Source of the DNA: Blasia pusilla
Taxonomy: Eukaryota
Length of the DNA: 64,000 nucleotides
NCBI GenBank assembly: GCA_050084515.1
Contig: CM114271.1
Location: 17,050,001-17,114,000 of the forward strand
Reading direction: 5' to 3'
In this document: positions 1-52,405 of the stretch, one piece after another
How the letters are laid out: the number at the start of each line of letters is the position of its first letter
Numbering within the stretch: position 1 is the first letter of the stretch
Position numbers and translations under genes: made by a program
The notes under the pieces: generated by a model
The model's input: the letters and a program-made list of their open reading frames with translations, nothing else
Database searches by the model: none
What the model was told of the DNA's origin: nothing

Positions 1-170
1 GATGAACAAGTTCAAAGGTTGGTGGAGTCCAACGCCGATGAGAGCGAGCGGGCGATGGGATTTCCCATAGGAGTGACGGCAGTACCGTCAGTATCAGAGG
101 CATCACGACGCCATGTCTTGGGTCAGGCGATGGACTTGAACTGCTTCACATGGATCTTCAGCTTGGGAGT
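1..170 (+). pseudogene. C-terminal motifs IX-X of a putative C5 DNA cytosine methyltransferase domain (DNMT3/DRM-like) within the Gypsy pol frame
   Basis: Frame +1 reads LVESNADESERAMGFPIGVTAVPSVSEASRRHVLGQAMDLNCFTWIF, matching the E-x-E-R-x-x-G-F-P-x-x-x-T...R-x-x-x-L-G pattern of DNMT3/DRM C-termini. It is in the same frame as RT. Only the C-terminal end is visible. Confidence 0.72.
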
Positions 171-507
171 GGCTGAGCAGCGTCGGATGAGATCGCGACA
201 AATCTTAACGGTTGCGTTGGTGAGCCCCATGCCTACCGAGACGGTGGAGGCAGTGGTTAGGGGCGAGACCCAAGGAGATCGACACACCAGGGGAGATCGA
301 CAGAGACACCCTTGGACTTCTTGGGTTGTTTTGCAGGTACGCCAGGAGATGATAGCCATGGCATCGAGCGTGGTTCCGAGCACTAAATGTGGAGGAGATC
401 AGAGTTTGCACTTGGTTGCAGGAGAGCGGTCGAGTGTCGTTGTTTGAGATAGGGTTGCACCATAGCAACCACCGATATCCGCGTGGGAGACTCCTACCGT
501 AGTCACG

Positions 508-1965
508 ATGGAGATTTGGGAGCCAGATATGGGCCCTAAGTTGACAGAAGGAGAGCGGCGCCGAATACATCAGTTCCTCAAGAGTTATAGGAGCTACTTT
601 GCGTTTAACATGGAGGATTTGGGCAGGCTGAAGGGATCGGGGATCCGCATTGAGTTGTTGAGTGATACGCCGATCTTCCGACGACCCTACAGGTACATTG
701 ATATGGAGAGGGCTTTGATTCAGAGTAGGAGCCAGGACTTGGTTGGAGCAGGACTAGTGGAGATGTCGCATGGGGAGTATGCATCTGCCACTGTCATGCC
801 CGCCAAGAAGGATATGCACGGCAACTGGACGGATAGGCGGATGTATGGGGATTACCGACCTATCAATCGGCAGACGAAGTCGGATAGGTATGCCATGCCC
901 ATCCATGAGGAGATCTTTGATGCGATTGGTCACGTAAAGGTCTTCAGTTCATTGGATTTGCGAGCCGGATACCATCAGCTGCCTATCACATTGGAGGACA
1001 GGCATGAGACGACATTTTGGGGCATCGATCCTCACGGGAAGGATTTTTTTTGTATCGATGGCGGTTCTTACCATTTGGGTTAAAGAATGCCCCCGTTGAG
1101 TTTGAGAGGGTTATGGATAGGATCTTGGCTGGTCTGGATTTTGCTAGGTGTTATATTGATGACATCGTAGTCTTTAGTGTCACGGTTGAGGAGCATGAGC
1201 GACATCTAGAGGAGGTGTTGTGACCATTGCAATTACATGATCTCAAGCTACATCCAGGCAAGTGCAAGTTCTTCTACGACCAGATTGAGTACTTGGGTCA
1301 TACGATATACCCACCAGACGAAGGTAGAGGCTATCTCACGCATTCCACGCCCTACAGATGTGAGCCGTGTTCGCGCATTCATGGGATTGGCGAACTTCTA
1401 TCGGCGGTACGTCAAGGGATTCAGTTCGATTGCAAAGCCGTTGACCTTGCTGACCAAGGTGGATCACGAGTGGCACCGGGGGGATGAGCATGAGCAAGCA
1501 TTTCAATTGCTCAAGGACAGGTTGACGTCTGCGCCCATCTTGAGGAGACCAATCAAGGGGAGTCCTTTCCAGTTGCAAACAGATTGGAGCATGTTGGGGC
1601 TTGGAGCAATGCTCAGCCAACATGATGATGAGGGTAGAGAGTTCGTGGTGGCTTGCGCTAGCCGTTTGAACAACGTTGTAGAGGCAAAGTACAACTCGTA
1701 TAAGGGTGAGTGTTTGGCTTCAGTGTGGGCTCTTGCGCATTTCAGGTGTTACTTGTTCGGCAACCCCTTTACCATCATCATTGATCATCAACCACTGAAG
1801 TGGTTGATGGAGTCCGACAAGCTTACAGGGAAGCTTGCAAGATTGGCTCTGTTGTTGCAGGAGTATGATTTTCAGGTGGTCTATAGACCTGGAACGCTCA
1901 ACGAGGATGCAGATGGGTTGAGTCGTAACCCATGCTTGAGTCAGCGAGAAGCGAATGGAGCTTGA
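508..1965 (+). pseudogene. Gypsy reverse transcriptase + RNase H (frameshifted)
   Basis: ORFs 508-1083, 1017-1223, 1227-1487 and 1237-1965 carry consecutive RT/RH motifs. Confidence 0.95.
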
Positions 1966-2319
1966 TGGCATGGAGAGAGTGATGAGGAGTCAGTGCCAGG
2001 ATGGCACGCGTCATCCTATTTAGGCATGTTGGCTATGGAGAGCCAGAGTGTGGAGACTTCAATGGAGAGGTCTAGTGGAGAGTCCTTGGATCCCGAGGCC
2101 AGTGAGGAGACCACAGATGGCCGAGATATTCATGATGATGGAGTAGTCTTGGAGTACCTTTGTAATGGTAGCGTTGCAAGCACCATGGGTGCTAGAGAGC
2201 GGGATTGGATCCTACAACGGGCCAGACTGTTCCGTTGGGAGGGGACACATGTTTTAAGGGTTTAGGAGGATGGTAGAGTACGCGTAGTGCCGCATGCTTT
2301 ACAGAGAGCATGACTAGTG

Positions 2320-3419
2320 CAACATGCCCACAAGGAGTTGGGTCACTTTGGGGTGAAGCGGACGTACAACTTGTTCCAGATTCAGTATTGGTGGTGAGGC
2401 ATGCAGACTGACGTTCAGCAGTTTGTTGCCAGGTGCATGGTGTGTGATCGGGTCCGAGCATTGTTTAATGCTCCGACTCCACAGTTGCATCAATTACCGA
2501 TCATGGGCTTAGGATATAGATGGAGTTTGGATTTTGCAGCACCTTTGCCTTTGACAGAGCGTCACAGTCGTTATGTATTGGTGATGGTCGAGTACTTCTC
2601 GAAGTGGATTGAGTTGGTTGCATTGCCTGATAAATTGAGTGAAGGAGTAGCTTATGCCTTCCTTGACAGAGTGTTGAGTCATTATGGTGCACCAGCTGAG
2701 GTGTTGAAGACCAGCGCACCGAGTTTCGCGGTGAGTTCCAAGCCTTGTGTGATCAAGCGTTGATCGACCACCGCACGACTTTGCGAGATCATCCCGAGGC
2801 GGATGGATTAGCGGAGAGAGTTGTGCAGACGGTGAAGAGGGGTTTACGCAAGTATGGCTTGTAGAGAGGTCACCTAGGAGATTGGGACCTCCAATTTCCA
2901 TGGTTGGCGATGGGATACAGATTCAGCAGGCAGACATCCTTAGCGTCTTTTTCACCGTACTTCCTCCTTTATGGCTGAGAGCCAGATTTACCTACGGCCA
3001 TTTGTCGAGATGCTGGTGAGGTGTTGGACCTTGATGACCCAGATGTATGGATGCGAGCATGTTCTCAGAGGGCTGAGTTGTTTTGGAGAGTGATGCCCAC
3101 GGCGTTCGAGAAGTTGGCGATTGCGCAGCATCGGGATACGTTGAGGTATGCGAATATTCAGGGTGGTGGCTATCGACCAACTATCCGGAGGTTTCATCAA
3201 GGAGATTATGTCTACTTGCAACAGACGGCACCGACGATGTTGGATGTGACTGGAGGGCGCACTATCCTGAGAGTGCGTGACGTTTTCCCATCCGATATTC
3301 TCTTGCTGGAGGGACGAGATGGTATGGTATGGAAGGACCATGTGCGTAATTGTGCGCCATGTCACTTTCGTAACATTGATGGTACAGTAGATCCGAGCTC
3401 AGTAGTAGTTCTTGCATGA
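2320..3419 (+). pseudogene. Gypsy integrase (HHCC zinc domain + DDE core)
   Basis: HAHKELGHFG...CMVC; RWSLDFAAPLP; YVLVMVEYFSKW; GLAERVVQTVKR. Confidence 0.93.
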
Positions 3420-3566
3420 TTGCGTTGTATGTCGTGTGGTTCTGCTCGTGGTGCGGACACGATGTTAGTCTCTGATGGATGTTTGAGAGGTTGGCATATG
3501 GCATGTCTCACGCCACCTCTCACTAGGGTTCCTCAAGGACGATGGATGTGTCCTAGATGTGCATAG
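3420..3566 (+). pseudogene. PHD finger at the C-terminus of the Gypsy integrase
   Basis: After an in-frame TGA (3417-3419) the frame reads LRCMSCGSARGADTMLVSDGCLRGWHMACLTPPLTRVPQGRWMCPRCA*. This is C4HC3 spacing with one Cys->Ser change and the typical W-x-C-x-x-C end. Confidence 0.88.
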
Positions 3567-4096
3567 AGGAGATACCAGGTATGTTTCGATTCTGACTTTT
3601 TTCTGCGACTAACGATGGGGCCACATGAGCACCCGACCTTTATGCTCTTAGCGACCTAGAGATGTATGTCATGGTAGGTAGGGATAGATGACGATCTGGA
3701 GTTAGAGGGACCTAACCACTAGCTAGGGGGGGATTGGAGATATTTTAGTACTTCTTGTCTCGTTGTTTGGATGTCATGAGTTAGCATGGGATCGTGCGTG
3801 TTTCTGTGTGTGTTCGATGAAAGCGATGCATGTTGTGTAGCGATGTGTATGCGCACGACAGTTGTCACGTCTTTTAGGATAGATCCGTTAAATCTAGTAG
3901 AGTGCCTTCGTGAGTAGTGGAGGACAGATTAAGTAGGTCGAGGATGACCTGCTGAGGCCCCGAGAAACCTGAGAGAGCATGTTTTCCTTTCGTTTTGGCT
4001 CATTTGGAGCCATATTGAGGAACTTACTATTTTAGGTAAGTTCCATTTTGAGTATATGATCAACTTTCTATTTTTATTAAGTGGCCATTGACCTCC

Positions 4097-6463
4097 TATC
4101 TTGGATGCTCTTCTATCTTGCTTTGGAAATGGAAATCTAGCTTGTTTTCCAAATTGGCAAGTAGGGCATAACTCTAACATAGTAGGACTCGCTAATTTAG
4201 GAAGTATTAGTACTAGATTAGATGATGAAAGACTCTTTAATCTTTGAAGATTCATATTCCCAATTCTCTGATGTCACACATTTAGATATATAACTTGTGG
4301 TTTAGTTTGACCATACATTGATGTTTAAATTTCTGGCATAGAAACATCTAATTTGAATATTTTCCAGATCTTGTTCCTTTGGCTATCATATTCTGATCAT
4401 CAATTCTTTCAAGGAAATAACCATTTGTGTTAAATTTCACTTGATAACCTTGTTCTTCTATCTGTCATATAGAGATCAATGGTAGGAATATAGATAACAT
4501 TTCCAAGAGCACAAACACCATATGATGCTATTGGAACTTTATCTATATGCGTGATATAATGTTGAGTATCATCTCCTGTGAGCATTCATTGGCTCCATAC
4601 GACTGAACTATTTAGCTTGTAAGGTCATGTGATTTGTTGCACTAGAGTCGACATACCAATCTACTGTCGAGTCTTTCTTGATTATTGCTCTCATATGATG
4701 AATTTATAAATATTGTTGTTCTTGACACTTCTCTTGATGTTGTCGCTCCTCATAGTTTTGTTGTTGTAAAGCTCTCGTTCTCATATCTGCCTTCTTCTTG
4801 AAATACAACTTTATACAATAACCCTTTATACCACAGTAATTATAAAATCCAGGGATTCTCTGTTGCTGACTTCGACCCTAATGGTTTTCAACATGACAAC
4901 CTTGTGATTGTGTTTGGTATTGGTTTGTAGTTGGTTGAATAACGTTTTGTTAAGTGCCTCTTCCTCCATATACTTGATATTTACCACGATCACGGAAGTT
5001 TCTACCACAACCTCTGCCTCTATTTGATCCATTACCTACTAATAGCGCACTCTCTTGCATACTAGACAAGCTACCGCTGCCTACTAGGCGTCTTTCCTCA
5101 CTAATTAACGGAGGAACTGATTCTTGGAAGGTTGGATACTTCTCTCTCATAAAGATAAAGATCTCAAAAGACTTATAATATTTTGGAAGGAATTGAAGAG
5201 TGAACAAAATCAGATCATCATCTTTGACAGTCATTCCAATGCTATTCAACTAATCAACAATATGTCCGATACTGAAAACATAGTTATTAATATTTTGCGA
5301 TCCTTTTCTTACTTCGCTCAATTGTAGCTTTGGCCTTAATAGATGTTTGGAATAGCCTTTCCAATGCATCTCTTTCTTTCTTCAAAATATCAACATTTTG
5401 AATGTGACTTATTATTGATAAACATATATTTTCTGAAATATAGTTGATTACTTGCCTTACGTCTTTGTTTCAAGCGCGAACATTCAAGTCTGTTAAATCA
5501 CCTTCTGGTTTAGCCTCATCACAAGTAACAAGCTTCCATAGTTCTTGACCTATGAGAAGTTGTTTCAAGCGAAACTTCTAGAAATTATAATTATGTTTAT
5601 TTAGTTTCTCGTATATGATTTTGTTGACAAATACTCCATGAAGAACGATGTTACTCACAAAAATATATTTTCAGACTCTCCATGGCTCCAATTCAAGCAT
5701 TGAGCATTTCTTAACATAAATTGATATGAAAATTTCAGTATTAACCAATTGTATGAAAGAACTAGTCGAAATTGGCATATAGAGAGCAAACTGCACAACT
5801 CTTCTTTACTAATTGCACTTTCCTACACTAAAATTACTATTGCTAGAGCTAAGGATGTCAAAATTGATTAATTTTGCATGTGTTGGAAAGCTCTTAAAGA
5901 GTTCTGCAAGATGGTCAGAACTAGTCTTTGATATCCTTCTAACTAATGCAGACTCAGATTGCTAAATTGACCGGGAAAGCCCTAAAAAATGCCTACAAAG
6001 TTTTGTCCCCTCATAGCTCCACTTGAAATCTTTTGCTAGTGAGCTCTCAATGAAGTTTCCTTCTCCCAAACTAAAATTGTGCCTTCTCTTGCCTCTTTTA
6101 TTTTCTTAACAATAAGAATTTAAATTTATATTCTCATATAACTCTGATACCATGTAGAAAACTCCTAAAGAAGCATAACTAGTGGGATACGACTATCACA
6201 CTCATATATCACCATGGAGAATGAAATTTTGCAATGAGAGAATGAGTGGAGGCTCGTCCCCTTCTCAATTATATAAGATATATACAAGCCATCCTAACCC
6301 TGATCCCAACCAAAGTCTTAAGCTAGACTAATAGTTATAAACCAACTATAGTTAAGATAATCGTGCTTAACTCACTACTCAATTAAGCTTTCCTACTTCG
6401 TGTGAGTAGCAAATGTAACAATTCAGATGTTCAATGAGCTTGACTATAACTCAGTCTTTAATA
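4097..6463 (-). mobile_element. Ty1/Copia retrotransposon copy 1 (5' LTR, PBS, gag, protease, pre-integrase; truncated)
   Basis: Gag fragments (MNSIGMTVKDDDLILFTLQFLPKYY), GAG-pre-integrase CPTCQFGKQAR; colinear with copy 2 at ~8720-11158. Confidence 0.9.
6153..6463 (-). repeat. 5' LTR of Copia copy 1, with adjacent tRNA-iMet primer binding site (6142-6152)
   Basis: ctctgatacca (= TGGTATCAGAG on minus) abuts tgtagaaa; homologous to 10853-11158. Confidence 0.85.
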
Positions 6464-7721: not shown

Positions 7722-10700
7722 CATATATGCATGATATGTCACAAAGAATCCTTCATTTATGAATCTATGACTAAGATGTGTCACTCTACTTGATCTACGA
7801 AGTTAATTTTCAAAGATGGATGCCTCTGACACTTGACTTGAGCTCTAACTTATATCAACCGGCTGAATACGTATTCTTCTCGTCCATGGACTGACAGATT
7901 AACTGATGAATCTAGGACCTTTCCTAATTCTGCACTAGTACTTGGGAAATTTATAGGCAATATCTGTTGGTTGACAATCATATTCTCCGCCTCAATAGAC
8001 GAGTTTAGAGATGGAACAAGCTCAGATGGAGCAAACTATGACTTTAGTTCATCAAAGAAACCATCGCGATTAATAGTAAGCTTACTAGAGGATGGAATGT
8101 AGCACTTATACCCCTTAGTTCCATCAACATAGCCAATGAAGATACATCTTTCAGACTTGGGGTCTAATTTTTGACATCTTTCTGAAAAAAACATGAGCAT
8201 AACAAATACAGCCAAATACTTTCAAGAAGGAAAAATTAGGTTTATTGTCTGTAAAGACTTTGAATGGATTCTTATCATGAACTCATGTTGTTGGAGTTTG
8301 GTTGATTAAGAAGCCAACGCACGCAACAACCTTTGCCCAATACACCTTATGCATGTTCTTCTCATTCAATATAGCATGTGTCGCCTCAACAATATGTCGA
8401 TTCTTCCTCTTAGCCACTCAGTTTTGTTGTCGAGTATAATGGCAAGTCTTTTAATATTGGATGCCATTTTGATGTAAATAGTCATCAAACTCTGTTGAAA
8501 GATACTCTCCTCCTCCATCACAACGCAATTTCAGAATGTGTTCTTCAGTCTGCTTCTCTACTATAACTATGAATATTTGGAAAACTGAGAATATTTATTA
8601 CTTGGCTTTCAAAAAGTATATCCATATACACCTAGATAAGTCATCAATAAATGAAAGAAAGAACTGGAAACCACTAAGGCTATATTGTGATGTTGTGCAC
8701 ATATTAGTGTGAATCAACTCCATTATCTTGGATGCTCTTCTACCTTGCTTTAGAAATGGAGATCTAGCTTATTTTCCAAATTGGCAAGCAACGCATACCT
8801 CTAATGGAATAGGACTCACTAATTTAGGAAGTCCTATTACTAGATTAGATGATGAAATACTTTGTAATCTTTGAAGATTCATATGCCCAATTCTCTTATG
8901 CCATGCATTTACATCTGTGACTTTTTGGCCGGTTTGACCATACATTGTTGTTTGAATCTCTTGCATAGAAACATCTAATTTGAACATTCTCCCTGATCTA
9001 GTTTCTTTGGCTATCAAAGTATTGTAATCCATTATTTCAATGAAACAACCATTTCTATTAAACTTCACTTGATAACCGTGTTCTACTATCTGTCTTATAA
9101 AGATCAAGTTTCTTGCAATGGGAGGAATATAGAGAACATTTCCAAGAGCACAAAGACCATATGATGCTATTGGAACTTTAACGGTATGCGTGATATGATG
9201 TTGAGTGTCATCTTCTGTTAGCACTATTGCAAAATCTTTCACTAACTCCATACTACTGAACCATTTTGCTTGTGAGGTTATGTGATTTGATGCACCAAAG
9301 TTGATATAGCAATCCGTTGTTGAGTTTCTCTTGACCATTTCTCCTATATGATGAGTCATGACCAAGAGATACTTAGTTTGTATATGTTGTTGTTCTTGAT
9401 ACTGACCTTGGTGTTGTTTCTCAACATAATTTTGTTGCTATAAGGCTCCCATTCTCATATCTGCCTTCTTCTTGAACCAAAACTTTGTAGAGTGACTCTT
9501 TATTCCACAGTAATTGCAACATCCAGAGACCCTCTGTTGCTCATCTAAACTCAAGAGTTTCCACCATCATCACCTTGTGATTGTGTCTGATACTGATTCG
9601 TAGTTGATTGAGTGACGTTATATTCAGTGTCTCTTCCTCAATATGTTTGATATCCACAAAAAACACGAAAGCTTCTACCACGACCTCTGCCTCTGTTTGA
9701 TCCATTACATGTAAATAGCGCACTCTCTTGCATAATAGAAGAGCTATTGCTGCCTACTAATTGTATTTCTTCACTGATTAGTAATGAGACTAACTCTTGA
9801 AAGGTTGGATACTTCTCTCTCACAGAGATAGAGGTCTCAAAGGACTTGTAATCCTTTGGAAGGCCTTGAAGAGTGAAAAAAATTATATCATCATCTTCTA
9901 CTCTCACTCCAATGCTATTCAATTGATCAATAATAAGTTTGATACTCAAAACATAGTCATTAATGCTCTACGATCCTTTCCTCACTTCATTTAATTGTTG
10001 TTTCAATTGAAGCTTTCTAGCGTTTCTTTATGTCTAGAAAAACTGTTCTAATGCATCCCTCTTCTCCTTTGGAGTATGAATATCTTGAATGTGACCTATC
10101 ATTGGCAAACTGTTTATTATTGAAATGTAGTGGATTATCTGTCTTGCGCGTTTGTTCCAAGCGCGGACTTTCAAGTCTGGTGAGTCAACTTCTAGCTTGG
10201 CCTCATCACCTGTTACAAGTTCCCATAGTTTTTGGCCCATAAGAAAATATTTCATTCAAAATTTCTAGAAATTGAATTTTTTTAATCTAGCTTCTCGCTT
10301 GTGATTGTTGTTGAAGAATACTCCATGAAGAACGATTTCTCACTAAAAAAATGTAATTTCAGGCTCTCCAATGCTCCACTTCAAACATAGATAACTCCAA
10401 AACCAAATTTGACCTAAAATTTTCCAAAATTGATCAAATGTATGAAAGAACTAGTTGAAATTGGCATGTGGAGAGCAAGTTGCTCAACTTCTCTTCACTA
10501 ATTGTACTTTCCTATAATGAAATTGCTAATGCAAGAGCTCAGAATGTCAAAATTGAGTGATTTTGGATGCGTTGGAAAGCTCTCAACAAGCTTTACAAGA
10601 CGGTTAGAACCATAATTTGGCATTTATCTGAGAGACATGGACATTGATTGCTAAATTTATCGAGGAAGCCCTAAAAAATACCTCCAAAGTTTTGTCATTG

Positions 10701-24300: not shown

Positions 24301-27274
24301 AAAGTAGTCTCCGTGGAAGGGCAGATGATGCAACCATCCTGCAAAATAGCATTGACACTTCAGAGTTGTGTGACCTGAAAGCTTAGATATGCAAACTGAT
24401 GATCAAAAGAACGTACTGCAAGAATTGCATGCAAAGAGAAGGTTCTTGATGTTTGTAGAGACCACTGAGCGCTTGGTAACAAACCCATACACTTTAAGAT
24501 GCATAGACAAAATGCTAGCCACTCCCCTCATTATGTCCAGGACCAGACCTGAGAATTGCAACAGCAGGAATAGACCGATAGCTGACCAGAAAACTTCCAT
24601 CTTTCAAGATTTACAGCTTTGATTTCAAAGGGAAAATTTTCTAGAATCAATCTTCATTTGCCTTTCAGCACAGTTTCCATGACCTGCACATAATATTGCA
24701 TGCTACGTGTTGATTCTTTGCATGTGTTTCCCAATGAATAGTATCATCCACTTAATTTCCTTTTTAAAAGAGTCCTGGGAAAAGAACCGACAGTTGCTCT
24801 CCAAAGACAAGGCAGCCCAATTTCTTCCCCAAAATGTGAGATACTTCTGAGCAAAAAGGTATGACCAAACTCTGCAGTCATTCGCAACACCCAATGAATA
24901 GTATCGTCCACTTAATTTCCTTTTTAAAGGAGTCCTGGGAAAAAAACCGACAATTGTTCTCCAAAGAGAAGACAGCCCAATTTCTGCCCCAAAATGTGAG
25001 ATACTTCTGAGCAAAAGGGGTGACCAAACTCTACAGTCCTTCACAACACACTCCTGCGTATCTTTGAAAGAAACCAGGAGCTCAGAAAGTCCACAGCTAC
25101 AAATAGAAAGAAAGGCAACACTAATCGCCATAGTATTAACACATACTCTTCTACTTGGTCACCGACCTATAGACTCCGTCATCGTCAACTCAAGAAATTC
25201 CTTGTTATGGTATCTATCTAGGAACCCAAGAGAACAAGTCACATGAGTCTGGAGATTCGGTTCTCTAACAGTCTACTCAGTGATACTTACAACAGAACGA
25301 GTGGCACTTACTGCTGATTTACCTCACCAGAACTCTGCTCTAAGTAAAGTAACCAAGATTTCAAGGTCAGTCATTCGCAGATCTATTTAATCGGGAATGA
25401 GTTCCTTTACATGAGTCCAGACCTAGAAGCTTGAAATGTGGTCATGAAAGGTATTTAACGTATGCAATGCCAAGGCACGCATAAGAAGTGGTCACATCAA
25501 CTAACATGGTTCCTTCACTAAACAAGACTCGTTCATGGAGAGATCAAGCCTAGCAGCTTCAAATCTGAATGTAAGAGGTGCTCCGACAGATGCCATGCCA
25601 TGGCACACACATTGAAGAGGTCCAATAAACCAGTAAGCATCCTGAGGAATAGGAGATGAATCAATCAACCTCGCTCTTCCCCTACACCCAGTTAAATTTC
25701 TAGGTCAGGACAGGAGCTATTACCTTGAACCACAGAAGGAGGAGGACGCAAACACTATCAAAATCTTGCACACTCTTTGATGATGCGGATGAGAATTTCA
25801 GTCACTTATCTGCCTACTTAAGAGAATTTCGCAGCGGAAAGGGAAACAACCTGCTGAAAAATTGCTCTGACCGTATCACCTGAGCTGAACCTCAAGTTCA
25901 GTCGCCTAAATTCAGTGTCCAAAGCTGCTGAACAGGTAAGTGATGGTTTTATGTTGTCATTCCGGTAAGGAAGATAAAGTTAGAAGGAGAATTATGCGCC
26001 ACAGAAGCTATTCCCTTAAAGCAGAAAGGAGGAGGGTGTGAAAAATATCAAACCCCGCACGCCCTGCAATGATGGGAATGAGGCTCTGGGTCACTATCTG
26101 CCTACTTGTAAGAAACTTTATAGCATAAAGAACAACAGCCTGCTTAAACAAAATATTCCGTGAAAGTAGTACCAGAGCACTTCGTGGACTTAAAGTCACC
26201 TCAATTCGGTGCCTACAGCTGCCATATTAGAAATCCATGTTTGGATTCTAATTCAGGTAAGGTAGGTAGAGCTCTCACGGATCTCTAGGCCATCAGAAGC
26301 TATTCCCTTCAACCAGAAAAGAGGATGCGGATACTATCAAAACCCTGCACGCTATACAATAATGGGGAATTTGAGCCACAACCTGCCTAAATGCAAGAAA
26401 CTTTGCAGCCGCGATGGAGACATCCTAATGAAACTTTGCCATGACGGTTTTACTAGAGGTCTTCATCGAGATCAATCGTCTCAATTCACTGCCCTACAAC
26501 TGCCATACTAGTAACCAACGTTGCTTGGGTCCTAATTCAGGTGAGGTGCACTGAGTAGCGAAGAATTTCTTGATGCAAACCTAGAAACTCCGCGAAAAAA
26601 CATTATAGAAGGCACCACCTTTAGACGAGTTACGACAGTAGCTCCCTCCTGTCATTTGTCATTTTCTTTGATCTTCCCCCCTCCCGCGTCCATCCAAATC
26701 CAAGTCACAATCACAATCTAGTTCCAGGCACTGCTCAAAAAATAAACTCTCTGAAAACGCACAGCAGAAGCCCCTGCACAATACACTCACTTCCTCATGC
26801 AGACTAGAACGGAACGAATTCGCCATTGCAGGCGGTGAGACTCACCGGCGTCAACCTGGCGTTGAACATTCCCTCGCTGTAGGCACCTTCAGCGGGCGAC
26901 TGATTCTCCAGAGCGTAGACATCCTCTTTGTACCACAGGAGCAGGACGTTCTCTCCATCCTGTCGAATCAACCGTCTCTCGCCTCTCGGCAACGCCGAAG
27001 TGGGAATTACTGGAACCCACGAACCCTCATCGCCCGCCTCAGTCGTAGTCGTAGACGAGGACGCTTCCCCAGCCGCATTGCACTCAATCGACCTGCACTT
27101 CCGCCGACGCTGCCTCAAACTCGACCTCCCCACCACTCCACACGCCAAAGGTGCGAATGCATAACAATTCCCCACCGCGAGCTCCTTGCCCCCCGCTGCC
27201 CTCCTTCCTCTCCACGCGCTCGCCGTCCCGATCGACGCCGTGGAACATGCCAAAGCGCACGAAATTGCTGCCAT
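21361..27274 (-). CDS. PSB33: PSB33/LIL8-like thylakoid protein (Rieske-like domain + C-terminal LHC-like helix), 3 exons, ~290 aa
   Basis: Exons 27274-26846, 24338-24081 and 21546-21361 join in frame with GT-AG introns. Transit-peptide-like N-terminus, WVPVIPTSALPRGERRLIRQDGENVLLLWYK, CPSTETTFDLKTG, ELVNGRAAMVGF. Confidence 0.92.
24730..25049. repeat. Tandem duplication, 2 x 160 bp, in PSB33 intron 1
   Basis: cccaatgaatagtatc... starts at both 24730 and 24890; the units are near-identical. Confidence 0.9.
25713..26560. repeat. Degenerate tandem triplication of a ~290 bp unit in PSB33 intron 1
   Basis: agctatt.cctt.aa...gagga...tatcaaa...ctgccta recurs at ~25715, ~26006 and ~26298. Confidence 0.7.
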
Positions 27275-30200
27275 CGCTCCCTCCCCTCTCCTCGTCCTCC
27301 GTGATTCCACTCCCCACTCTCTGTCTCTCTTTCTCCGTCTCTCTTCTCTCTCTCCTCCTCTCTAAAGGGTCAGGGCCGGAAGGCCCGGAACCGTCCAGGC
27401 TCGGAGAGGATCGGGTTGGCGGGGAGCCAGACCTGTAGGAGGTAGTAGGAGGTCGCCGGCCCGGCGGGCGGGTCACTGAGGACCGAGCCTGGCTCCAGGG
27501 GTGGATGACGTGGCGCTATCCCCTATGTCCCGAGCCTCGAGGATGTGGAGGGTCGGCAGGGTGAGGTGTTTTCGGGACCTGCTGTAGCAGGTCGGAAAGG
27601 GTGGGGGACGAGTCGCTTTGCGCCTGAGCTGGTTGTAGGAGGAGATTGTCGTTCCTCCGAGGCTCTCCGGTCGTTCTTTCGAGGATGAGGTTCGGACCTG
27701 GGTGCGTGGATAGACGGCCATCCACGTGTCGACGCGCCATCAGGTGCGCGGCGGGGGATGAGAGAGGCCCGGTGGGCGGGTCGCGCGGAGGCGGACCTGG
27801 CACTGCGATATGATGACGTGGTAGTAGCGGGCTGCAGACTTACTTCCATCGAGCCTCTCCATTGGTCGGCCTGGATCAGGTCCGGCGAGTTGTGCGTTCG
27901 TTCTCCCTCGTGGCTAACGGAGTTCGTGGACAGAAGACTGTCCACGTGTTGAAGCAGAATTTCGACGGACTTCGAGGACGGACAATGTGGCTGACCGCGA
28001 CCTTATAGTAGGAACCCGAGCAACATGCCATAATTGCCATTGCATTCGCAGCGATGCCGACGAACTGCATGACACCTCCAGTCACCGCATCTAGTAGCAG
28101 TCACCGTCAGTAGTTGCGGCAAGTTCGTGAGGATAAGGGGAGGAACTCCGAATGCGAAGCGGAGAGGCAGCTGAGTGAGGGAGAAAGAAGACATTGAATG
28201 AGGTAAGGAAGAAAGAAGAAAGAAGGATTTCAAATAAGGTACTTACTGCGCGATTGGCGAATTCCGGATGTCTCCGAGACAGGCTAGGCTTTAGGGATCG
28301 GCACATTGGTCTAGCAGCCTATGGTATCAGTTCTTGCAACACGTCGGGGGAATGGACGAATGCAGAAAGACCAGACCAGACGCGAAGAAGCGAAGATGAT
28401 GGATAAGGAAGAAAGACGAATTTTCTAGTAAGGCACAGGAGATGCAATTCGCGAACTCCTGAACTCTCTGAAACCTGATGGCTTCCGGGATCGAGGTCTT
28501 GGTGGAGAAGGCTACGCTGAGAGTTGTCAGGAGCTGGTGAGAAATGGATAAATGGAGAAACTCCCAACCAGGCGCGAAGAATCCTGTCAATTAGGAAGAA
28601 GGAAGAATTTCAAAGGAGGTATAGGAGATGCGATTGGAGAAGTCCGAAACGCTCTGAAAAACGCAGGGGTGTTCCTGATCGATGTCTCGGTCAATAATGA
28701 GGCTATGCTCCCAGTTCTGTCGGCAAGTCGGTTAGAAAAGCGAAAGAGGAATCTCAAGACGCAAAGTGGCGGATGCGGTAGGACGAGCGAAGATTTCAAG
28801 TGAAGTACAGTACATGCTTTTGGCAAATTCCAGAACGGTCTGAAAACGCGCAATTGTGTGTTGCGGACATCCACTCACCGACCTATCACCCTCCTATCAC
28901 CGTCCTGAGATCGGATTCGCTGTAATGGTTGCCGGGAGGAATCTATCGCTGAAGAGATTTGTTTTCAGCCGATGTCGGGAACGATTTCAGGACGACCACA
29001 AATAGGACCAGTCTGGCACGTTACCAGACTCAGACGGTCACGGCTTTACATCTTCTAGTTTCAGCCCCTAGCATTTTTATTTGCATTTTTTTTTGTCATT
29101 CGGCGTCTTGTTTCGGGAACAGAGAACATGCAAACTCGCGGAAAATCTTCAGCGATATGTTGCGGTCTCTTGAACGCGTCTGCTGATCATGTGCTACCAC
29201 AGCTTGAAGCTGTAAACCTACGCGCGGACTTCGATTTATGGATGCACGAAAGTAGCGCTCCACATTGGCAGACTACAATCTGGCCCTAATCGTAATTTCT
29301 CACGTCACATGATGTAGTTGCACGTTCTTTCCTTCCCTTATCTCTCTCGCTTTTTTGCATGTGCATCTCTCTCTCTTTTCAGTACACTCACGAGTTTCTA
29401 TCAAGCTCTCCGTGAGGTAGACTTATGAAAAAGTTAGTAGGGACAGCATGAAGGTTGACAGCTCCCTCCACCATATCTAGCTTTTGGCTGACTTAGAAGA
29501 TAGTCCTGTTCCTTGAATCAAAGTAATTGGTTGAATTCTTAAAGTTGGAAGTCTTTGCCACGGATGATCTTAGCGTGAACATAGAAAAACTGTTTCATAC
29601 CTCACATCTTCTGCCTCCCGAAATCTCCGCATCCCTTCTAAGCAGGACGAGAACCGCAACAGATAGGTAATGGAACTACCTACCAGCTCAAATCTACGAA
29701 TATCTTTGTCCTGCTGCTGTATTGGAAGCGACGGGGGTAAAGACACTAGATTGGTAGACTGTGCTGGACGACACTTCACGAATCGTTAGAAGGTCGAGTC
29801 CTCGGAGCCAGGGCCTGGGAACCCATCAGTGTATGTTCTGAGCAGCTCCGAATGACACTGCAGTCTGTCCGGAGGTTTGATCCATGACGACCACCGAAAG
29901 TCTTGACAGCGACTTAGGACCCAAGAGTGAACTCTGAAGGTGCTTGTAAGCACGACCTCGGGTGAACACCGAGCGAGATGTGATTCCAAACCATGCTAGG
30001 GTGAAATCCATCCATTATCCTAGCAGTTCCAGTCAAGAGTAGTAGGAAGCGTTCAAGAAATAGGGTTACAACGGATGAACCCGTTCTCAACGCAGTTCCA
30101 TGGGATGCTTGTGGAACCAAAAGTCCTCCAGCATTCCGCCCTCGCTTGCAGATCTTGGAGCAACGCATGGATCATGGGCCGTTGTTTGTCCAAATGCATC

Positions 30201-42355: not shown

Positions 42356-42535
42356 ACCTGTCCACTCTGCATGAACCCACCATACTTTCTTAATATGTTT
42401 CGGATCTCAATGTTGAACCTATATACCCAAAGAAGGCGTTTTGTCCCACTCCCAACCAACGTAGCCATTTATTCCATGTATAATTGGTGAGTCTTAACTG
42501 GCTACACTACAAACTACTCTACAATTGATAATTCA

Positions 42536-45500
42536 ATGTGCCTTATTAATGGCCACAACTTCCGTAGACGAAAGGGTACGACTTCTCAAGAAATAGCACA
42601 TAAACAGAGGATGCTTTATTGCAAGACTCACGCAAAGTTAAGACTTGCCAACGCTATGAAGTCAAAGCAGAGGTATGTGTGTTGGATATGGCTAGACATT
42701 CATACATTATTAAAACGCTCGACTTCCCCGTGTTCATCGTTCGTTACCAAAATGAGATGTTGTGGCTATTGTGGAACTATGAGCTATTACACCCCAACTT
42801 GCGGCATGAGAACTATCACCTCACATGTATATCCACCCTATGCCCTGTGCAATGGATACATGGCTAGCTATGTTATTCCAATTGTTGCATCCTTCTATAC
42901 ATGCCGCCGTTATGTTTTGTCTGTTGGTGACACTACATGTAATGTTTATATGACGCGTGCTTATATTCGAGATATATTGGAGGTGAATCCCATGCATCTT
43001 CAACTATTGTCTTTCATTGACTCCAATATAGGTATCAAGGCCAAATACAATGGCTTTCATAGGGGTTTTTTTCAAGTAAATTCCCTCATTGACTATCCCT
43101 TGATTTCTTGGAGTTCATCCACTGCTACACCTATTGATCTTGACTTCATCTATAGGCAGGTGAAGAAATTTCTCTTAGTTAATCTACGGGTTAACAAGCT
43201 GTATCTACATTACATGGCTCTCATTGAACTCTCTAATCCAAGGTGTGGTCTGGTGGTATTACCATCTTCATTTTTTTATACTATTCTTAAGGCATCTGAA
43301 GAAAAAGGAGAGCTTATGCATAGTATGGCAGCCGACCAATATAGTACAAAATTTATTGTTCTTCAAGATGTTCAATACTCTTTACCTATTAAAAAATGTA
43401 AGTTATACAATATTTTTCACAATGGCAATGTATTTTTCAAAGACAGTGCCGAAACGAGAGATCAGTTCCTCAGTGATAATGAGATTTCAATTTATTCACA
43501 ATTGACTATTGAAATAGGTATCTCCCCATTCCTGTTTCCCTACACGAGAGGGTATTTCACATGTGAGTTATCATTTTTTTATTACATGCGAATCCAGATA
43601 GGGGAGCTTTTTAGTGTCTTCACGTTGTATAAACCATATGCCCTACTCGTGCACCAATTACGATCGTCCATAATTATAGCCTCTTCTAGTCGTACATGCA
43701 TTCTTAATAGAGAACTCCAATATTTGAAGCGTACAAACTCGGACTTATCGAGCAAGGAGATTTATTCCCAGCTTTCTAGACATACCTTTACTGCTTGGAA
43801 GTCCATCTTGGCATCACCGTCACCTCGAGGATTTAAGGGCTATGGTAGCAAAATGGGGAATGCCCAATTTTTTTTTGATATTGACCTTGGACGAGGTGTC
43901 TGATACAAAGTGGCAAGAAATCATTGAGATTGAACAAGTAGTACAAAAGCTAAATCCCAAGTTTTCATGGAGGGACGCTCCAATTGAGTGCGCAATCTTA
44001 TTTCACACAAGGTTCAAGACATTTTTCAGTTATTACATACTTTTTGGGCCTCAGATTCTTGGCCGTGTCACCAACTACCTAATCCGATATGAGCTACAAG
44101 GTAGAAGGAGTCTTCCTGCTCATATAATTCAGTGGATCAGCAAAGACGACATTAATCACGTAGCATCTGAAATATGTTGTTACATACCTGTCGTATCCTG
44201 TTATGTTCACAAGAGGGCTAGCCATGCTGATCCACCACATACGCTCCATCACTATGTGACTACAAAACAAATCCATACATGCAAATAGGAGGTATGTATC
44301 ATTAAGGCAACTAAAACCCGTCCACACTACTGTCGAATGGGATTTTCCAGCAAACCAAGTTTTTCATTGCAGCCATTCATTGATAATAAAACTTTGAAGT
44401 GGACATATTATAGGCCTAGGGAATCTCACCGCAATGTCATATCGTATCATCTGGCCATCCTACTCTTAAGGGGGGCACACATGAACCTACAAAGGGTCAC
44501 CAATGTTTAGTGGTCATTCTATTTACTAAAATATGCACTAAAGTGTGAACCACATGGAGCACTAAACATTACAACAGAGTGTGCACGATGTCTGGGACTA
44601 GAGGGTCTAGATGAAGTTAGGTTGAAGTTAATATCTTGGCTTGTACTTAATAGATTTGTGTCATCTAGTGAAGCTGCTCTCACATCCCCTAAAATCCCCA
44701 TCATTTGTAGGTCTTAGTCCGTTTAATATATTGACTCAAGCCCGCCACACAGATGAACCCACCTATACAAGAATGCCACGATTCTCTCCATACACCCAAC
44801 TATATTATACTCCTATCGACCGGACTCATTGTCTCAACGGACCTTTTTTCAGTTCTGGTCTTCTTATTAAATTCATAAGGCTCATAGTAAAGATAGTATT
44901 GCTTTTCTAGGACACGACTTGCTTGGAAACTTAATTTATAGAATTGATCGGCTGGTCCGCTTTACAAAATTCCATCCGATGCACTAGTGGAACGAGTTTT
45001 TCTATACTACTTTATTGCGAGGTGTTGCTTTTAGAGCAGAAACAGAGCTACTTAGTGTTGTTTCTCCACAGTGGTCCTATCTCCATGAATGTATCTACCG
45101 AGGCATATTTACAGATCAGTCCTTAATTGTGGATGAAATCATAAGACATATGGATGCGAACATGTAGAGTGAAGTTCATGCTGGTGAGATCATTTTTAAA
45201 GCCCAGACCTTTTTCGTCCTCACTTACAATTCAACATTCCTCTTGACCCATACACAACACAGACCTTCCACTCTAGCCATATTATCACTGAGGACCAATG
45301 TTCACAAACCCAGATACCCAATAATATCCTTAACCCAGAGAAACTTCACCTTTTCCATAGTATTAAGGATCTGAAAATCCGGCCTTATCATGTTAGCGAG
45401 ACCACATGGTTGTGGAAAAACCTTTTTCATGCATTTCATGCAAAAATATTTGACCAATACCTCTGTTGTTTCACTGATGGCTGCCACAATAGCGATTAAT

Positions 45501-46569
45501 GGTATTCGCCTATATGCTAGTGCCATCACTGTTCACTCTACTTTCGCTATCTCAATTAAAGGGGACCTTCCATCCATGCACACTGCTTCGAATCAATACA
45601 TGCCTAAAAAAGGCCTAGGTCATTGTTATAGACAAGTGTTCTATGTTAACACCCCGCCTGGTGTAGATTGTTGCCATGAGATTACATCAAGTGTCCTCCT
45701 GTCCACACTTGGATCCATTTTTAGAGAAACTTGTTGTATTGGTCGGTGAATTATCACATCTCCCGCCAGTATGTCGGCACAAGTCGGCCAAAATTTTCTT
45801 ATTATGTCACATCTCATCTTCGCCCTTTTACATTGATATGACCAAATATCATCTCTCTGTGGCAATAAGACATAGCAATGACCTTCCCTTTTTAAGTTTT
45901 CTATCACAGGTCAGTGTCAGGAGACCAACTCAAGATGAAATAAACTACAACATGCATCTCTGTTTTGTCGATGAGAATAGTGCTATTGACTTTGTGAATG
46001 AAGACACACAAGTTGTTTGCTCTTATAGTTCTGATGTGTAAATATTTAACCTTATTGCATTGCAAAGAATATATGGCATTGCTGAAATATTTCATGTATA
46101 TGTTTCAACTGATCCGCCAAGTGACCCGAATTTGCATCATTGGATAAATGACAGTCACTTTCACCAGCTCCAATATCTTGCCATTGGTTGCAGGGTATTG
46201 TTAACTTCAAACATTGATATGGCAAAATATGCCATAAATGGTGCTGCTGCAACTGTCATTGAATGTGTTCAGGATTGCCACCATGTAACAACTATTATTG
46301 TTAGGTTGCATTCCAATAACAACACTTTGCGAAGAACAAGAACAAAATTCTCCACTATTCGATATGGTCCAAAAGAGAAGTACCACAAAAGAACATTTCC
46401 TCTCATGCTTGGCTATGTAATGATAGGCCATAAAAGTCAAGGCCTCACCATCCAGGGAAGATGCTTGCTTGTGATAAAATCAGCTTCTGCACCTGGTCTT
46501 GTATACGTTATGTTGTCAAGAGTTAAAACTACCACTCAATTACGCATTCTTGGTCTCTCTCCCCATTAG
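42536..46569 (+). mobile_element. Helitron-type Rep (HUH)/PIF1 helicase coding region, decayed; element termini not resolved
   Basis: Rep: AMVAKWGMPNFFLILT, RYELQGRRSLPAH (motif 2, first His lost), YLLKYALK (motif 3). PIF1: RPHGCGKT, TVHSTF, VGELSHLPPV, GCRVLLTSNID, FPLMLGY..IGHKSQGLT, GLVYVMLSRVKT. Many frameshifts. Confidence 0.92.
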
Positions 46570-46651
46570 ACTTTGATGTATTCACTCAATCACAATTTCT
46601 GCTGCCATTCTCTTACTCCTTGCTTGTGCACAATGGACACCCTTTACTAGT

Positions 46652-47693
46652 ATGGCAAGTAGCGATGGATCAACAAGGAGTTGTAGGAAGAAATCTACTG
46701 CATCAGCTTCACCAGTTCCACCTCCAGATAAGTTGGCGATACAAGCAGTACCTACACGCCACTCCACAATATTTCTAAGTGACAACACTTTGCCTGAGAA
46801 GCAACATGTTCTAGCTATACCCGGGCCGATAAGTTACCAAGATGATCAACAGAACCAGCAAGCTACTGAGGTTTGTGTATGAAGATATTTTGCTCTTACC
46901 AATTATAAACCTTGTTTCCTATAACCGACTACCAAATTGTCAGGTATCAAGGTCATATGTTAACTTTTCCAAGATGATTTTAAATGATATGCCCGAGCTA
47001 CCTTACAACAACCGTCCCCAAATTATTCCGCCAACTGATGCCCAGTTGAGGTATTCTTATACCCTAGGCCTAGACCAAACTTACTATGGAGGAGAAATCT
47101 CTAGCCGACAGATGAGCCGACTCATTGATGAGAGGAAGGCCTGGGCTGCATCATTCAAAGAGTTGAAGAAGCAACCCCCGCAACAGGTAGCTTATTCACT
47201 TTCTCTTGTCTTTCATTTTTTACAATGTGGCTATACATGTTATTTAATCATGTTTAACATTGGCTTACTTATCCAATCAGGTATTCAGAAGGAGGTGATG
47301 GTGCATAAGGTTGTGCCTTTCAACGAGCTAGACTTAACACGTCAGCAAGCAACTACTCACTTTACACTGCTTACAGATGGCATAAAACCGGACCAATTTC
47401 AAGAATTGAGAGTGATCATGAAGCTCCTTGTTGACATGTTGGTAGATCTGATCTCCGCGAAAGCATCCCACCTTCTTTCTCGCCTTAAAGCTGCCCATGA
47501 AGATGGGACCATATCGAAGTTGCCTAATGCTGATCAACACAGTATTGCCGATGCTATTCACAATTATGCTCTAGTGTTGAGCTCCAAAGGGGCATCTGGA
47601 AGTAGATCCAGCTCTATCCATTTCCAGAACAACAACCTTTCTTACTACGGTCCCCCACTTCCAGACTCTCCCAACAAATGCAAGTGTGCATGA
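46652..47693 (+). CDS. Putative spliced orphan gene (~288 aa, no recognised domain) directly downstream of the Helitron helicase
   Basis: GT-AG intron 46871-46943 joins ORF 46652 in frame to ORF 46842; a second candidate in-frame intron at 47187-47288 removes a T-rich segment; no stop until 47691-47693. Confidence 0.5.
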
Positions 47694-49811: not shown

Positions 49812-52405
49812 CCCCGATACGTTAATATCGTGCAACGTGATACTCGCGAGCTGCACGTGCTCTTCGCCCGATGGACATGGCTCCTTCTTCAGCTGTTACC
49901 ATCGATGCCCTCCGGAGGCTACATCCTCGTCCAGCGGTTGACATTCCAGCTTTTGCACGTGACTTCCATCGACACGGCTATATGCCTTGACTGTCCCCTC
50001 TTTGCACGGGCACTCGGGCGTTCTCCGAGGATTGCGGCGGAGGTTTTATGCGGTATGATGTACGAACACCTTCGTGATTGCTTTCTACGAGGACACCGCT
50101 AGCGGCTTCTCCGAGTTGCTTCAGGTTGCCTCTCACCTAGCTCAGGGGAGAGTGCCAACAGCAGTAGCCCAAGTATTAGGGGCGGGGCGACTTTTGGCGT
50201 TGTCGAAGGAGGGTGGTGGTATCCGTCCGATTGCCATAGGTGAGGTGCTCTTGCGGTTGGTAAGTCGTACTCTCGCTTTGCAATTCCGTGAGGCTTTCCA
50301 GTCACATCTGAGTCCGCATCAGTTTGGAGTTGCCACGCCAGCCGGATGTGAGACGGTTGCCTTAGGTTTGAGGGCTTGTCTAGATGTACATCAGAGGGTG
50401 GTTCTCCAAGTGGGCGTGGAGAACGCCTTCAACTCAGTATCTCGGGCTACTACATTCACAGAGTTGAGGGACGCGGGTGGCCCCATGGCGAGCCTCATTC
50501 CCTTTGTGCAGGCTTTCTATGGGGCCCCTTCGGCCCTCTATTTCCACCATGGTCGATTCGAGGAGGAGGTCACGGTCTTGGAGTCTGCTATCGGGACTCG
50601 TCAGGGTGACCCTCTGGGTGGCGCGTTGTTTTCTGTGGCTCATTACCGGCGGTTCTTTCTACGGTGGAGGCTTTCCGGGTTGCATGTTCCCTTTGGAGAT
50701 GATACTCATATTGTTGGTCCTGGAGATCTGGTTGTCCCTGCATTCGAGCACTTTTCAGCACGGCTGGTTGGCACGTGTCGGCCTGGCGGTGAAGGTGGGG
50801 AAGTGCAAGGCTTGGTCTCCATCAGGCCTACGTGATGATCTACATTTACCCGACGGCTTCTTGCGACCTGTCGGAGGGCTTCGAGTCTTGGGAGTCCCGC
50901 TCGGGAGCCAGGACTTTGTATCGAGTTTTGTGGCAGCGGCTCTTACCGAGGATCTTCTCCACGTTGATGATCTTACGAGGATTGGTGACCCTCAAGTCGC
51001 CTTCGGCATTCTCTCTTCTTGTTTTGCTCGTAGACCTGGTTACCTCACTAGAACTGTGTGGACATCTAGTCACCTTTCTTCCCTATATAGATCCTTTGAT
51101 AGGAAGCTCATGCAGGTGTTTGGGGATCTTCTAGGACCCGGCTCCTTAGAGTGCCCCATGGGGGAGTTAGCTCGTAGACAGGCCTCTTGGCCGATTTCCT
51201 TTGGTGGAGTAGGTCTTCTCTCGGCCGAGTTAGTGGCGCCCTCCGCTTTTTTTAGGGAGTTGGGCCACGGTGGCACCCTCCTTTGCTCCCGATTTTTGGT
51301 TAGAGATAGACCGCTCCTTCTACACCACGTCTCCCGTGTCGAGGATGCCTCTTTCCCACTTTGAGTCTTCACTCACGGCTTGTAGAGATTCCCTTCGAGT
51401 TGAGGCGAGCCGTTCTCCCCACTTTCTCCTCCTTAGTTACCTCCGGTCGATCTGGGCTCCAATCTTCCTTGATGGAAGCCCACTTTGAGGCAGTTTTTAG
51501 AGGCACTATGTCCGACGGGAATATCCCCATGGAGGTTAGGGCCCATATTCGCTCTTGCTCCGGAAAGGGGCAGGCTCATGGGTAGGGGCGCCCCTTCTCC
51601 AAGCTTTCCGTGATCGCACCACTTACCTATACCACGATGCGGTTCCGCTTGGGCCTCCCCAACCATCGGTGGTTGGTTCGACACACCTGCGAGTGTCGCC
51701 GAGCCTGGATCCACTTGGTGTGCATTTGGCATTTGTCGATTGGGGTGAGAGGATAGCCACTCACGATGCAAAGGCGGGATATCATGTTCGAGATTGCTCG
51801 GGAGAGTGGCTTCCATGTGCAGAGAGAGAGGCACTACTCCATGCGGGATTCCCTCATTCGTGCCGATCTCTACATGACACGTGAGGCTGAGGTGGTTGTG
51901 GCGGACGTGGTAGTCAGAGATCCTACGCGGGAGGCAATGCGAGCCCAAGTGGTGGCCCAAGGGCGAATGCTACAAGGAGCGGCGGCGGCGGCGGTGAAGA
52001 AGACACATATCTACAGTCGACTACACAAGGGACACATCTTCATCCCCCTGGCCATAGAGATGTATGGGGCTATGGGGGAGAGGTTCGACTCGTTCCTTAC
52101 GGACTGCGCCCATCATCTCCACTCGAGAAATGGGTTGTCCTTAGCTACTGCAATTCTATATTGTAGGCAGCGGGTCTCCATAGCGTTGCAGCGTGCCCAG
52201 GCTAATGGGATTTTGCGGCGGGCTCAGGCTGTGGGAGACGCCGGCACTAGAGGCCCACTTAGTAGTAGTCATAGCTCTCTTGTTGTTGCTGATATTGTCG
52301 CTGCTGTTGGTGAGTTTCGTCCTTTTCTGGTTTGGACTCTTTGAGTCCCCCTCTTTTGTACTTCCGATGGGTTTTCCATCACTCGTTTTTATCGAAGTGC
52401 ATCTT
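49812..52405 (+). mobile_element. Non-LTR retrotransposon with RT + CCHC-like knuckle + restriction-like endonuclease (CRE-like clade), probably 5'-truncated, frameshifted
   Basis: GGIRPIAIGE, QFGVA..GCE, ENAFNS, GTRQGDPLGG, GDDTHIVG; TCEC../LDPLGVH..ERIATHD; RLE RADL..VVADV..FIPLAIEMYG..RQRVSIALQRAQA. 12-bp direct repeat TATTAACGTAGG at 49800-49811 and 52406-52417. Confidence 0.92.

Follow-up and report, generated by a model that had tools for sequence, protein, structure and literature searches.

The 64,000-nucleotide stretch of Blasia pusilla DNA analysed here (contig CM114271.1, positions 17,050,001 to 17,114,000; hereafter the window) opens inside a Ty3/Gypsy-type retrotransposon, of which the following features could be read.

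37..150 (+): C5 cytosine methyltransferase (MTase), C-terminal motifs; sister copies match Pfam DNA_methylase, and the matching sister stretch aligns to DNMT3A
466..1320 (+): reverse transcriptase (RT), broken by stops and frame changes; RVT_1 weak (E 0.007), clear in relatives
1483..1866 (+): RNase H (RH); Pfam RT_RNaseH, E 3.9e-31
2300..2975, approximate limits (+): integrase (INT) H2C2 finger, DDE core and GPY/F region, broken; rve E 4.2e-6 and H2C2 weak, both strong in an unbroken copy
3189..3365 (+): integrase C-terminal beta-barrel (AlphaFold strands, model residues 32-83), ending in a nearly invariant P-C-H
3417-3419 (+): in-copy stop codon TGA, private to the window copy
3420..3563 (+): PHD finger, C4HC3, with the third ligand lost in the window copy; predicted unmodified-H3-reader class
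3564-3566 (+): TAG, natural end of the pol ORF
3725..3732 (+): G-rich run resembling a polypurine tract, directly ahead of repeat B1; each of the 11 metagenome loci that have a B repeat shows a similar run before B1
3733..3860 (+): repeat B1, 128 bp; putative U3 start of the true LTR
3857..3866 (+): B/A junction GACA-RY-TGTC; candidate internal integrase site
3863..4098 (+): truncated repeat A2; the window copy has neither B2 nor the 3' target duplication

Upstream of the window are the remaining MTase, gag-PR remnants and the 5' repeat A1; the order in this high-copy family is gag-PR-DNMT3-like MTase-RT-RH-INT-PHD. The order PR-RT-RH-INT, TG..CA ends and a target duplication are those of Ty3/Gypsy elements, but the two complete direct LTRs of that group are replaced by a split arrangement, A..B-A-B. 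The PHD follows the beta-barrel and the region that we take to be GPY/F. A chromodomain occupies the same place, after the GPY/F region, in chromoviruses. Just upstream of the window (L021:7645), the window copy was also seen to lack ~3 kb of the interval that separates A1 from the gag region, priming site included.

Elsewhere in the window, 3929-5249 (-) and 8769-9967 (-) hold presumably Copia-like gag and pre-integrase fragments, one of them where A2 breaks off, and 42491-47693 (+) and 50059-52344 (+) hold fragments that we take to resemble Helitron Rep plus helicase and non-LTR reverse transcriptase with a C-terminal endonuclease, respectively. Also, the first exon of a host gene with a plastid-type Rieske domain was noticed at 26804-27361 (-); its best named match is from Marchantia (E 1e-41), and the next has E 2e-32.

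The PHD finger at the integrase C-terminus

An initial annotation of this DNA had proposed that a PHD finger, instead of a chromodomain, ends the integrase, and had named a Pfam search as a check. The 48 residues encoded between the TGA at 3417-3419 and the TAG indeed match PF00628 over model positions 1-47/47 (E 2.3e-10; 40.8 bits against a cut-off of 24), no chromodomain was found by a Pfam scan of the ORFs of the window element, and the proposal holds family-wide in the 20 copies compared below. The finger had further been described as C4HC3-like and in frame with the integrase after a single stop. While the Pfam match agrees with the former, the third zinc ligand is Ser in the window copy, which with seven of eight ligands left has a damaged finger; the frame is that of the ORF at 2979-3419, the C-terminal part of the integrase, but additional stops and a change of frame separate it from the catalytic core. 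In the AlphaFold model, the finger has a PHD fold with pLDDT ~90 throughout, and it was matched by Foldseek to DPF, BAZ2, ATXR5 and UHRF1; the top matches, PHF1 and the UHRF1 Tudor-PHD, have rmsd of 11-18 Å and only the barrel-then-PHD order in common with the model. The P-C-H motif at the end of the barrel (window 3354-3365), in which C, P and H are conserved in 100, 95 and 92% of 182 homologues, was noticed ~22 residues ahead of the PHD in the window and in homologues and may add a metal site.

We searched the genome (390 Mb, 26 contigs) and obtained 4,726 first-look candidates with the PHD region, 6,376 with repeat A and 7,673 with Pfam PHD, which are not copy numbers; among the 25 top PHD loci retrieved, 24 belonged to the family of the window element. 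Twenty copies were then compared, namely the best 20 of 40 scored DNA matches including the window copy, a non-random sample. The initial annotation would have failed if the stop at 3417-3419 were real with no coding constraint beyond it, which is not the case: the other 19 copies all read a sense codon there, and 18/20 copies stop two codons past the last Cys. All eight ligand codons are kept in 13/20 copies, one of which is frameshifted within the domain, and one copy is open for 638 aa covering RH, H2C2, rve and PHD. For changes common to at least three copies, dN/dS-like ratios were 0.34 in the core, 0.44 in the helical region, 0.16 in the barrel and 0.12 in the PHD, the last from small numbers (5 synonymous versus 2 non-synonymous), against 1.23 in the 3' UTR read in the same frame as a control. 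Shared variants in the linker region were 0 synonymous versus 3 non-synonymous, giving no sign of constraint, and ratios of 0.56-1.86 in singletons and pairs indicate little or none, as expected where decay or assembly error contributes. Loci selected by their PHD were kept out of these ratios because they had been picked for conservation.

RNA of the family was also found. Three stranded RNA runs of the same species each placed 4,293-4,574 reads on a 9.9-kb element, and in the two bins holding the PHD one strand reached a depth of 98-203 and the opposite strand 3-9; with libraries of the usual type, the deeper strand would be sense. Some three quarters of the reads are 90-95% alike, so that many copies or read-through contribute, and the transcription start site was not resolved by the reads of the three runs. 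At one locus (L083:8251-8910), RNA depth was seen to fall in the 5' leader, and joints found only in RNA (9423/179 and 2183/3255), with 4-base overlaps, recurred in the three runs; they might represent an intron or, alternatively, transcribed deletion derivatives. Many copies are young, with A1/A2 identity of 96-99.8% in 12/14 elements.

Beyond this genome, a search with the integrase tail plus PHD returned 40 integrase proteins, 39 of them with PF00628, plus one KDM5; one of the 40, a Coleochaete scutata transcript, is 68% identical over the integrase tail and PHD. The INT-PHD fusion recurs at the same distance in ~150 protein clusters with 42-66% identity, and these clusters, the best 150 built at 50% identity, were nearly all aligned from the core to the end of the finger, although these counts overstate the universality of the PHD, which was contained in the homologue queries. 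The strict C4HC3 pattern is present in 161/183 proteins, with the ligands conserved at 98-100% among homologues, and the whole PR-RT-RH-INT order is present in a relative (P0098). We conclude that the PHD finger is a true, selected C-terminal integrase domain of an old green-lineage Gypsy clade, and that the window copy is dead; the INT-PHD fusion is secure at the level of the family.

Several relatives have further features. P0018, P0023, P0032, P0040 and ~130 others possess a tail of up to ~500 aa past the PHD, and in some tails F-x-G-x-G and SPPF-like words recall, as we assume, an amino (N6A/N4C) methyltransferase; the P0032 tail had no Pfam match. The tailed relatives may carry two methyltransferases together with the PHD. 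P0212 has CCCH zinc fingers in its gag region plus MTase and PHD, and in L085, L089 and L091 the MTase is close to the integrase tail with no RT match, possibly as deletion derivatives keeping both domains. P0086 (cluster of P0005) is filed in UniRef as a protein of an uncultured cyanobacterium, which is probably plant or algal DNA in the bin.

Element ends and a proposed circular cDNA model

Repeats in the family are ordered A1-internal-B1-nn-A2-B2, where A is ~510 bp and B is 128 bp. Both ends were available in 14 of the 18 elements examined, and 4-bp duplications lie outside the TG..CA termini in all 14 (12 exact, 2 with one mismatch); similar duplications flank four solo A-B units (2 exact and 2 one-mismatch, read by eye) and two A-internal-B elements (one exact, one one-mismatch). 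In most copies nothing separates A2 from B2, and a few have 1-2 additional bases between them. LTR finders will mis-bound such elements, because their target duplication comes after B2.

Right after A1, 13-16 bases are complementary to a site inside A in five of the six testable elements (0/300 shuffles each), two of eight local elements having given no usable A end. In a distant family (L127), a 15-mer of different sequence is matched by a complement of its own, ~30 nt past a TATA box, and the self-complementarity is 11 nt in L098 and not significant in L076 or L112 (7 nt each). The complementary segments are paired in both the MFE and the centroid RNA fold; the fold of the whole stretch has z -1.86, with 10/200 shuffles equally good. 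In 30 metagenome loci with long flanks, out of 80, the exact GACA-RY-TGTC palindrome of the B/A junction recurs in 6 and a B repeat is present in 11. The spacer of this junction (window 3861-3862 and sister copies) was observed to be GC, AC, GT or AT, a pattern that would be expected from the decay of a methylated CHG palindrome.

This anatomy makes replication through a circular cDNA rather probable. The true LTR would be B+A, that is, a permuted LTR, and self-priming at the A end together with the tract before B would generate a cDNA of the form BA-internal-BA, the ends of which lack TG..CA. Joining of these ends into a circle would form the A/B junction, and the integrase would open the circle at the palindrome inside the LTR by a staggered cut after CA on both strands, giving processed ends with 2-nt overhangs; insertion of the opened circle would then produce A-internal-B-A-B and the 4-bp duplication. 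Double cuts or 1-LTR circles would give solo A-B and A-internal-B, but solo A-B can alternatively arise from A1/A2 recombination. Cutting of junction palindromes by retroviral integrases has been reported (PMC1180852, PMC1905944). Counting against the model, the mirror form A-B-A-internal-B, which a symmetric circle should yield, was never seen, and B1 is followed by A in 40 of 44 copies. Of the four copies that end at B1, two lack 5' sequence and a third is rearranged upstream, which obscures their original form. Whether circular cDNA can serve as a productive integration substrate is an old question to which these ends are relevant, and the family would, if the model is true, be a natural case of the 2-LTR circle as a productive intermediate.

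What the finger would read and what it would do

The nearest solved PHDs are those of CHD4, KAT6A, PHF12, KDM5A/B PHD1, DPF2/3, ATXR5, BHC80, AIRE and UHRF1, and most PHD-only structural matches have rmsd of 0.5-1.4 Å over 45-49 columns. In KDM5A PHD1, A1 of H3 is reported to be held by L309, P331, G333 and W335, R2 by D312, and K4 by E305 and the D292 region (10.1101/715474). Mapped through an ungapped alignment with KDM5A, the equivalents of D312, P331, G333 and W335 are conserved at 92, 97, 77 and 94% in homologues, and among the local copies the R2 Asp is present in 20/20 and the Trp equivalent to W335 in 19/20; the finger thus has the R2 Asp and A1 pocket of unmodified-H3 readers (KDM5 PHD1, UHRF1, BHC80). 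As for K4me3, we take the site of the cage tryptophan to be two residues before the His ligand. This position is Gly in 86%, Ala in 8% and never Trp in 181 sequences, different from H3K4me3 readers (ING, BPTF, TAF3), and the cage tryptophan is described as a requirement for K4me3-reading PHDs (PMC3214078).

The acidic K4 pocket is also absent in the window family, whose E305 equivalent is Ala and whose Cys1 is not preceded by an acid. An acid occupies the E305 equivalent in 3/24 proteins with a terminal PHD versus 76/137 others (tailed), and the mean net charge is 0 in the former versus -4 in the latter. UHRF1 is likewise without an acidic K4 pocket, and its PHD is reported to bind H3 via R2 with no K4 aspartate and to tolerate K4 methylation (PMC3214078). 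Because the A1 and R2 sites are kept, the K4 acids are absent and UHRF1 provides a precedent, the finger of the window family would, on its residues, belong to the unmodified-H3-reader class, with A1-R2 binding and weak K4 discrimination expected. A predicted complex between the PHD and residues 1-30 of the host H3, made with no alignment, scored 0.33 against a mark of 0.34 and was counted neither for nor against binding.

We consider it likely that the PHD, after processing, stays on the integrase and binds the free H3 N-terminus (A1-R2), without a pocket for K4me3. Chances appear about even that it would thereby tether the integration complex to nucleosomes, with insertion probably disfavoured at promoters carrying K4me3, an effect weaker in the window subgroup than in its acidic relatives; chromatin-guided integration by the PHD, which the initial annotation had put forward, can be called plausible to that extent. 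Gypsy-7a_cRei, which has a PHD and an intergenic bias, offers a precedent, although that bias may be due to selection, according to its authors (10.1101/2022.06.16.496473). Alternatively, the PHD in the window subgroup might be selected for a purpose other than histone reading, stabilising the integrase or binding nucleic acid or a non-histone protein, possibly for the cutting of the internal palindrome. This would be consistent with the lost K4 acids and neutral to basic net charge of the closest relatives, with the invariant Cys-His just upstream as a possible additional metal site, and with the reported need of full-length tetrameric integrase for palindrome cleavage in HIV (PMC1905944). 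Nonetheless, the R2 Asp and A1 pocket are retained in almost all copies and homologues, and UHRF1 is able to use R2 with no K4 aspartate (PMC3214078); we thus regard a purely non-histone role as unlikely. Capture of a functionless host PHD exon by the window copy or its family, which the stop ahead of the finger and the lost ligand might suggest, is refuted by the clade-wide fusion at constant distance, the Coleochaete transcript and the sense codon in the other copies, and virtually no weight is left on it.

The initial annotation had also proposed that the element has both a reader and a writer, loosely echoing DNMT3. In a further possible role, the PHD would act with the MTase like ADD, directing or licensing methylation of the cDNA or the new insertion instead of choosing the target. 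ADD reads unmodified H3 tails. The MTase does appear DNMT3-like, the best PDB matches in a sister copy being DNMT3A/B/C ahead of bacterial enzymes including HhaI (best E 3.8e-6), and the finger is of the unmodified-H3 class. Co-occurrence, another check proposed there, turned out to be common: 73/183 proteins, many of them fragments, have both PHD and MTase, or MTase with integrase; 40/66 proteins spanning RH to INT carry the MTase between the two; and in the metagenome loci it is ahead of RT in 12/30 and between RT and INT in 3/30. It is not obligate, however, since P0226 has a continuous PR-RT-RH-INT-PHD with no MTase by Pfam and a local profile. Two layouts exist, namely MTase-RT-RH-INT-PHD ending at the finger (the window family) and RT-RH-MTase-INT-PHD with a further tail; the position of the MTase varies across the clade, whereas the distance from the PHD to the integrase core is fixed. 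In the window family, furthermore, the two domains are ~3 kb apart with RT, RH and INT in between, and PR cleavage would probably part the MTase from the integrase. While reader and writer thus both have their counterparts, their coupling is weakened by the two MTase positions, by P0226 and by the absent K4 acids, and an ADD-like role seems rather improbable, less likely than targeting by the PHD.

Under the preferred reading, in which the finger guides integration through the H3 tail, the PHD would join the chromodomain as another type of reader carried at the end of a Gypsy integrase, here in a large clade of plants and algae. The prediction is clear (H3 A1-R2, no K4me3 cage), the acidic and neutral fingers offer a natural contrast, and many young copies together with RNA of the family make a target bias testable by observation alone.

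Comparison with known elements

With regard to chromoviruses, the family has no chromodomain after the integrase, where a PHD is followed by the stop, and its integrase core is 27-32% identical to chromodomain-bearing integrases of the same genome (7/15 loci aligned). Chromoviruses including Tcn1 are similar in having a chromatin reader at the integrase C-terminus, and Tcn1 is predicted to self-prime (PMC6317226), but they differ from the window family, which has split ends. A PHD was also expected in Selgy, but the term is absent from the text of the same paper. Split direct repeats are a feature of DIRS elements; no tyrosine recombinase was found among the scanned ORFs, and rve, H2C2 and 4-bp duplications are present instead. 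The NCGN target preference of Phygy (REXdb) was seen at the 5' copy in only 1/14 duplications.

The closest description is that of KnitGypsy-Dnmt3 from Klebsormidium nitens, a Gypsy Pol with a Dnmt3-like MTase and DIRS-like repeats (PMC5890265). By description, the two resemble each other in this MTase (by match search only, as above), in the repeat arrangement and in a streptophyte host; the window family belongs to a land plant and has thousands of first-look candidates. No replication model was seen in the accessible parts of that paper, and a PHD is not mentioned in its main text or three text supplements, although Fig. 4c may draw one. The circle model would, if true, account for the DIRS-like repeats of KnitGypsy-Dnmt3 with no need of a recombinase. 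Gypsy-7a_cRei of Chlamydomonas also has a PHD inside its Gypsy Gag-Pol, with a proposed targeting role and a 2.6-fold intergenic bias (10.1101/2022.06.16.496473); compared by description, it differs in that the legend lists RH, PHD and INT, the LTRs are ordinarily paired and no MTase is named in the accessible text. EpiLTRs/DAM-LTRs combine a reader and a DNA methyltransferase in one LTR element, and the paper, in the text of which a PHD finger is not mentioned, names a streptophyte Gypsy-DNMT3 (10.64898/2026.05.21.726589); there, the reader is a chromodomain and the enzyme a sister of DNMT4.

PHDs on mobile elements have been called widespread (PMC6673714; 10.1101/2021.11.30.470311), and that of Ginger1-9_HM is reported C-terminal to a Gypsy-like integrase (PMC2836005). 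Ginger1-9_HM differs in being a DNA transposon. Other cases are non-LTR or Penelope-like elements or have the PHD on a separate ORF, the last being presumably the layout of REM1. They include CR1, REM1 and Chlamys (cited in PMC6673714, PMC8557442). Foamy virus and HIV-1 integrases resemble the proposed one in cutting a palindrome internally to give processed ends (PMC1180852, PMC1905944), but their palindrome is the end-to-end 2-LTR junction, whereas that of the window family would sit inside the LTR, away from the cDNA ends.

No paper on the PHD or the end mechanism of this clade was found in a search that covered subscription papers, Repbase Reports, supplements and figures poorly. We tentatively suggest, at somewhat less than even confidence, an unclassified Gypsy clade spanning the green lineage that combines an H3-tail-reading integrase, a DNMT3-like writer and circular cDNA as its normal integration substrate. 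A PHD in Gypsy Gag-Pol and a Dnmt3 in Gypsy Pol are already in print separately; to these, the present analysis adds the breadth of the clade, the reader class of its finger and the permuted-LTR model.
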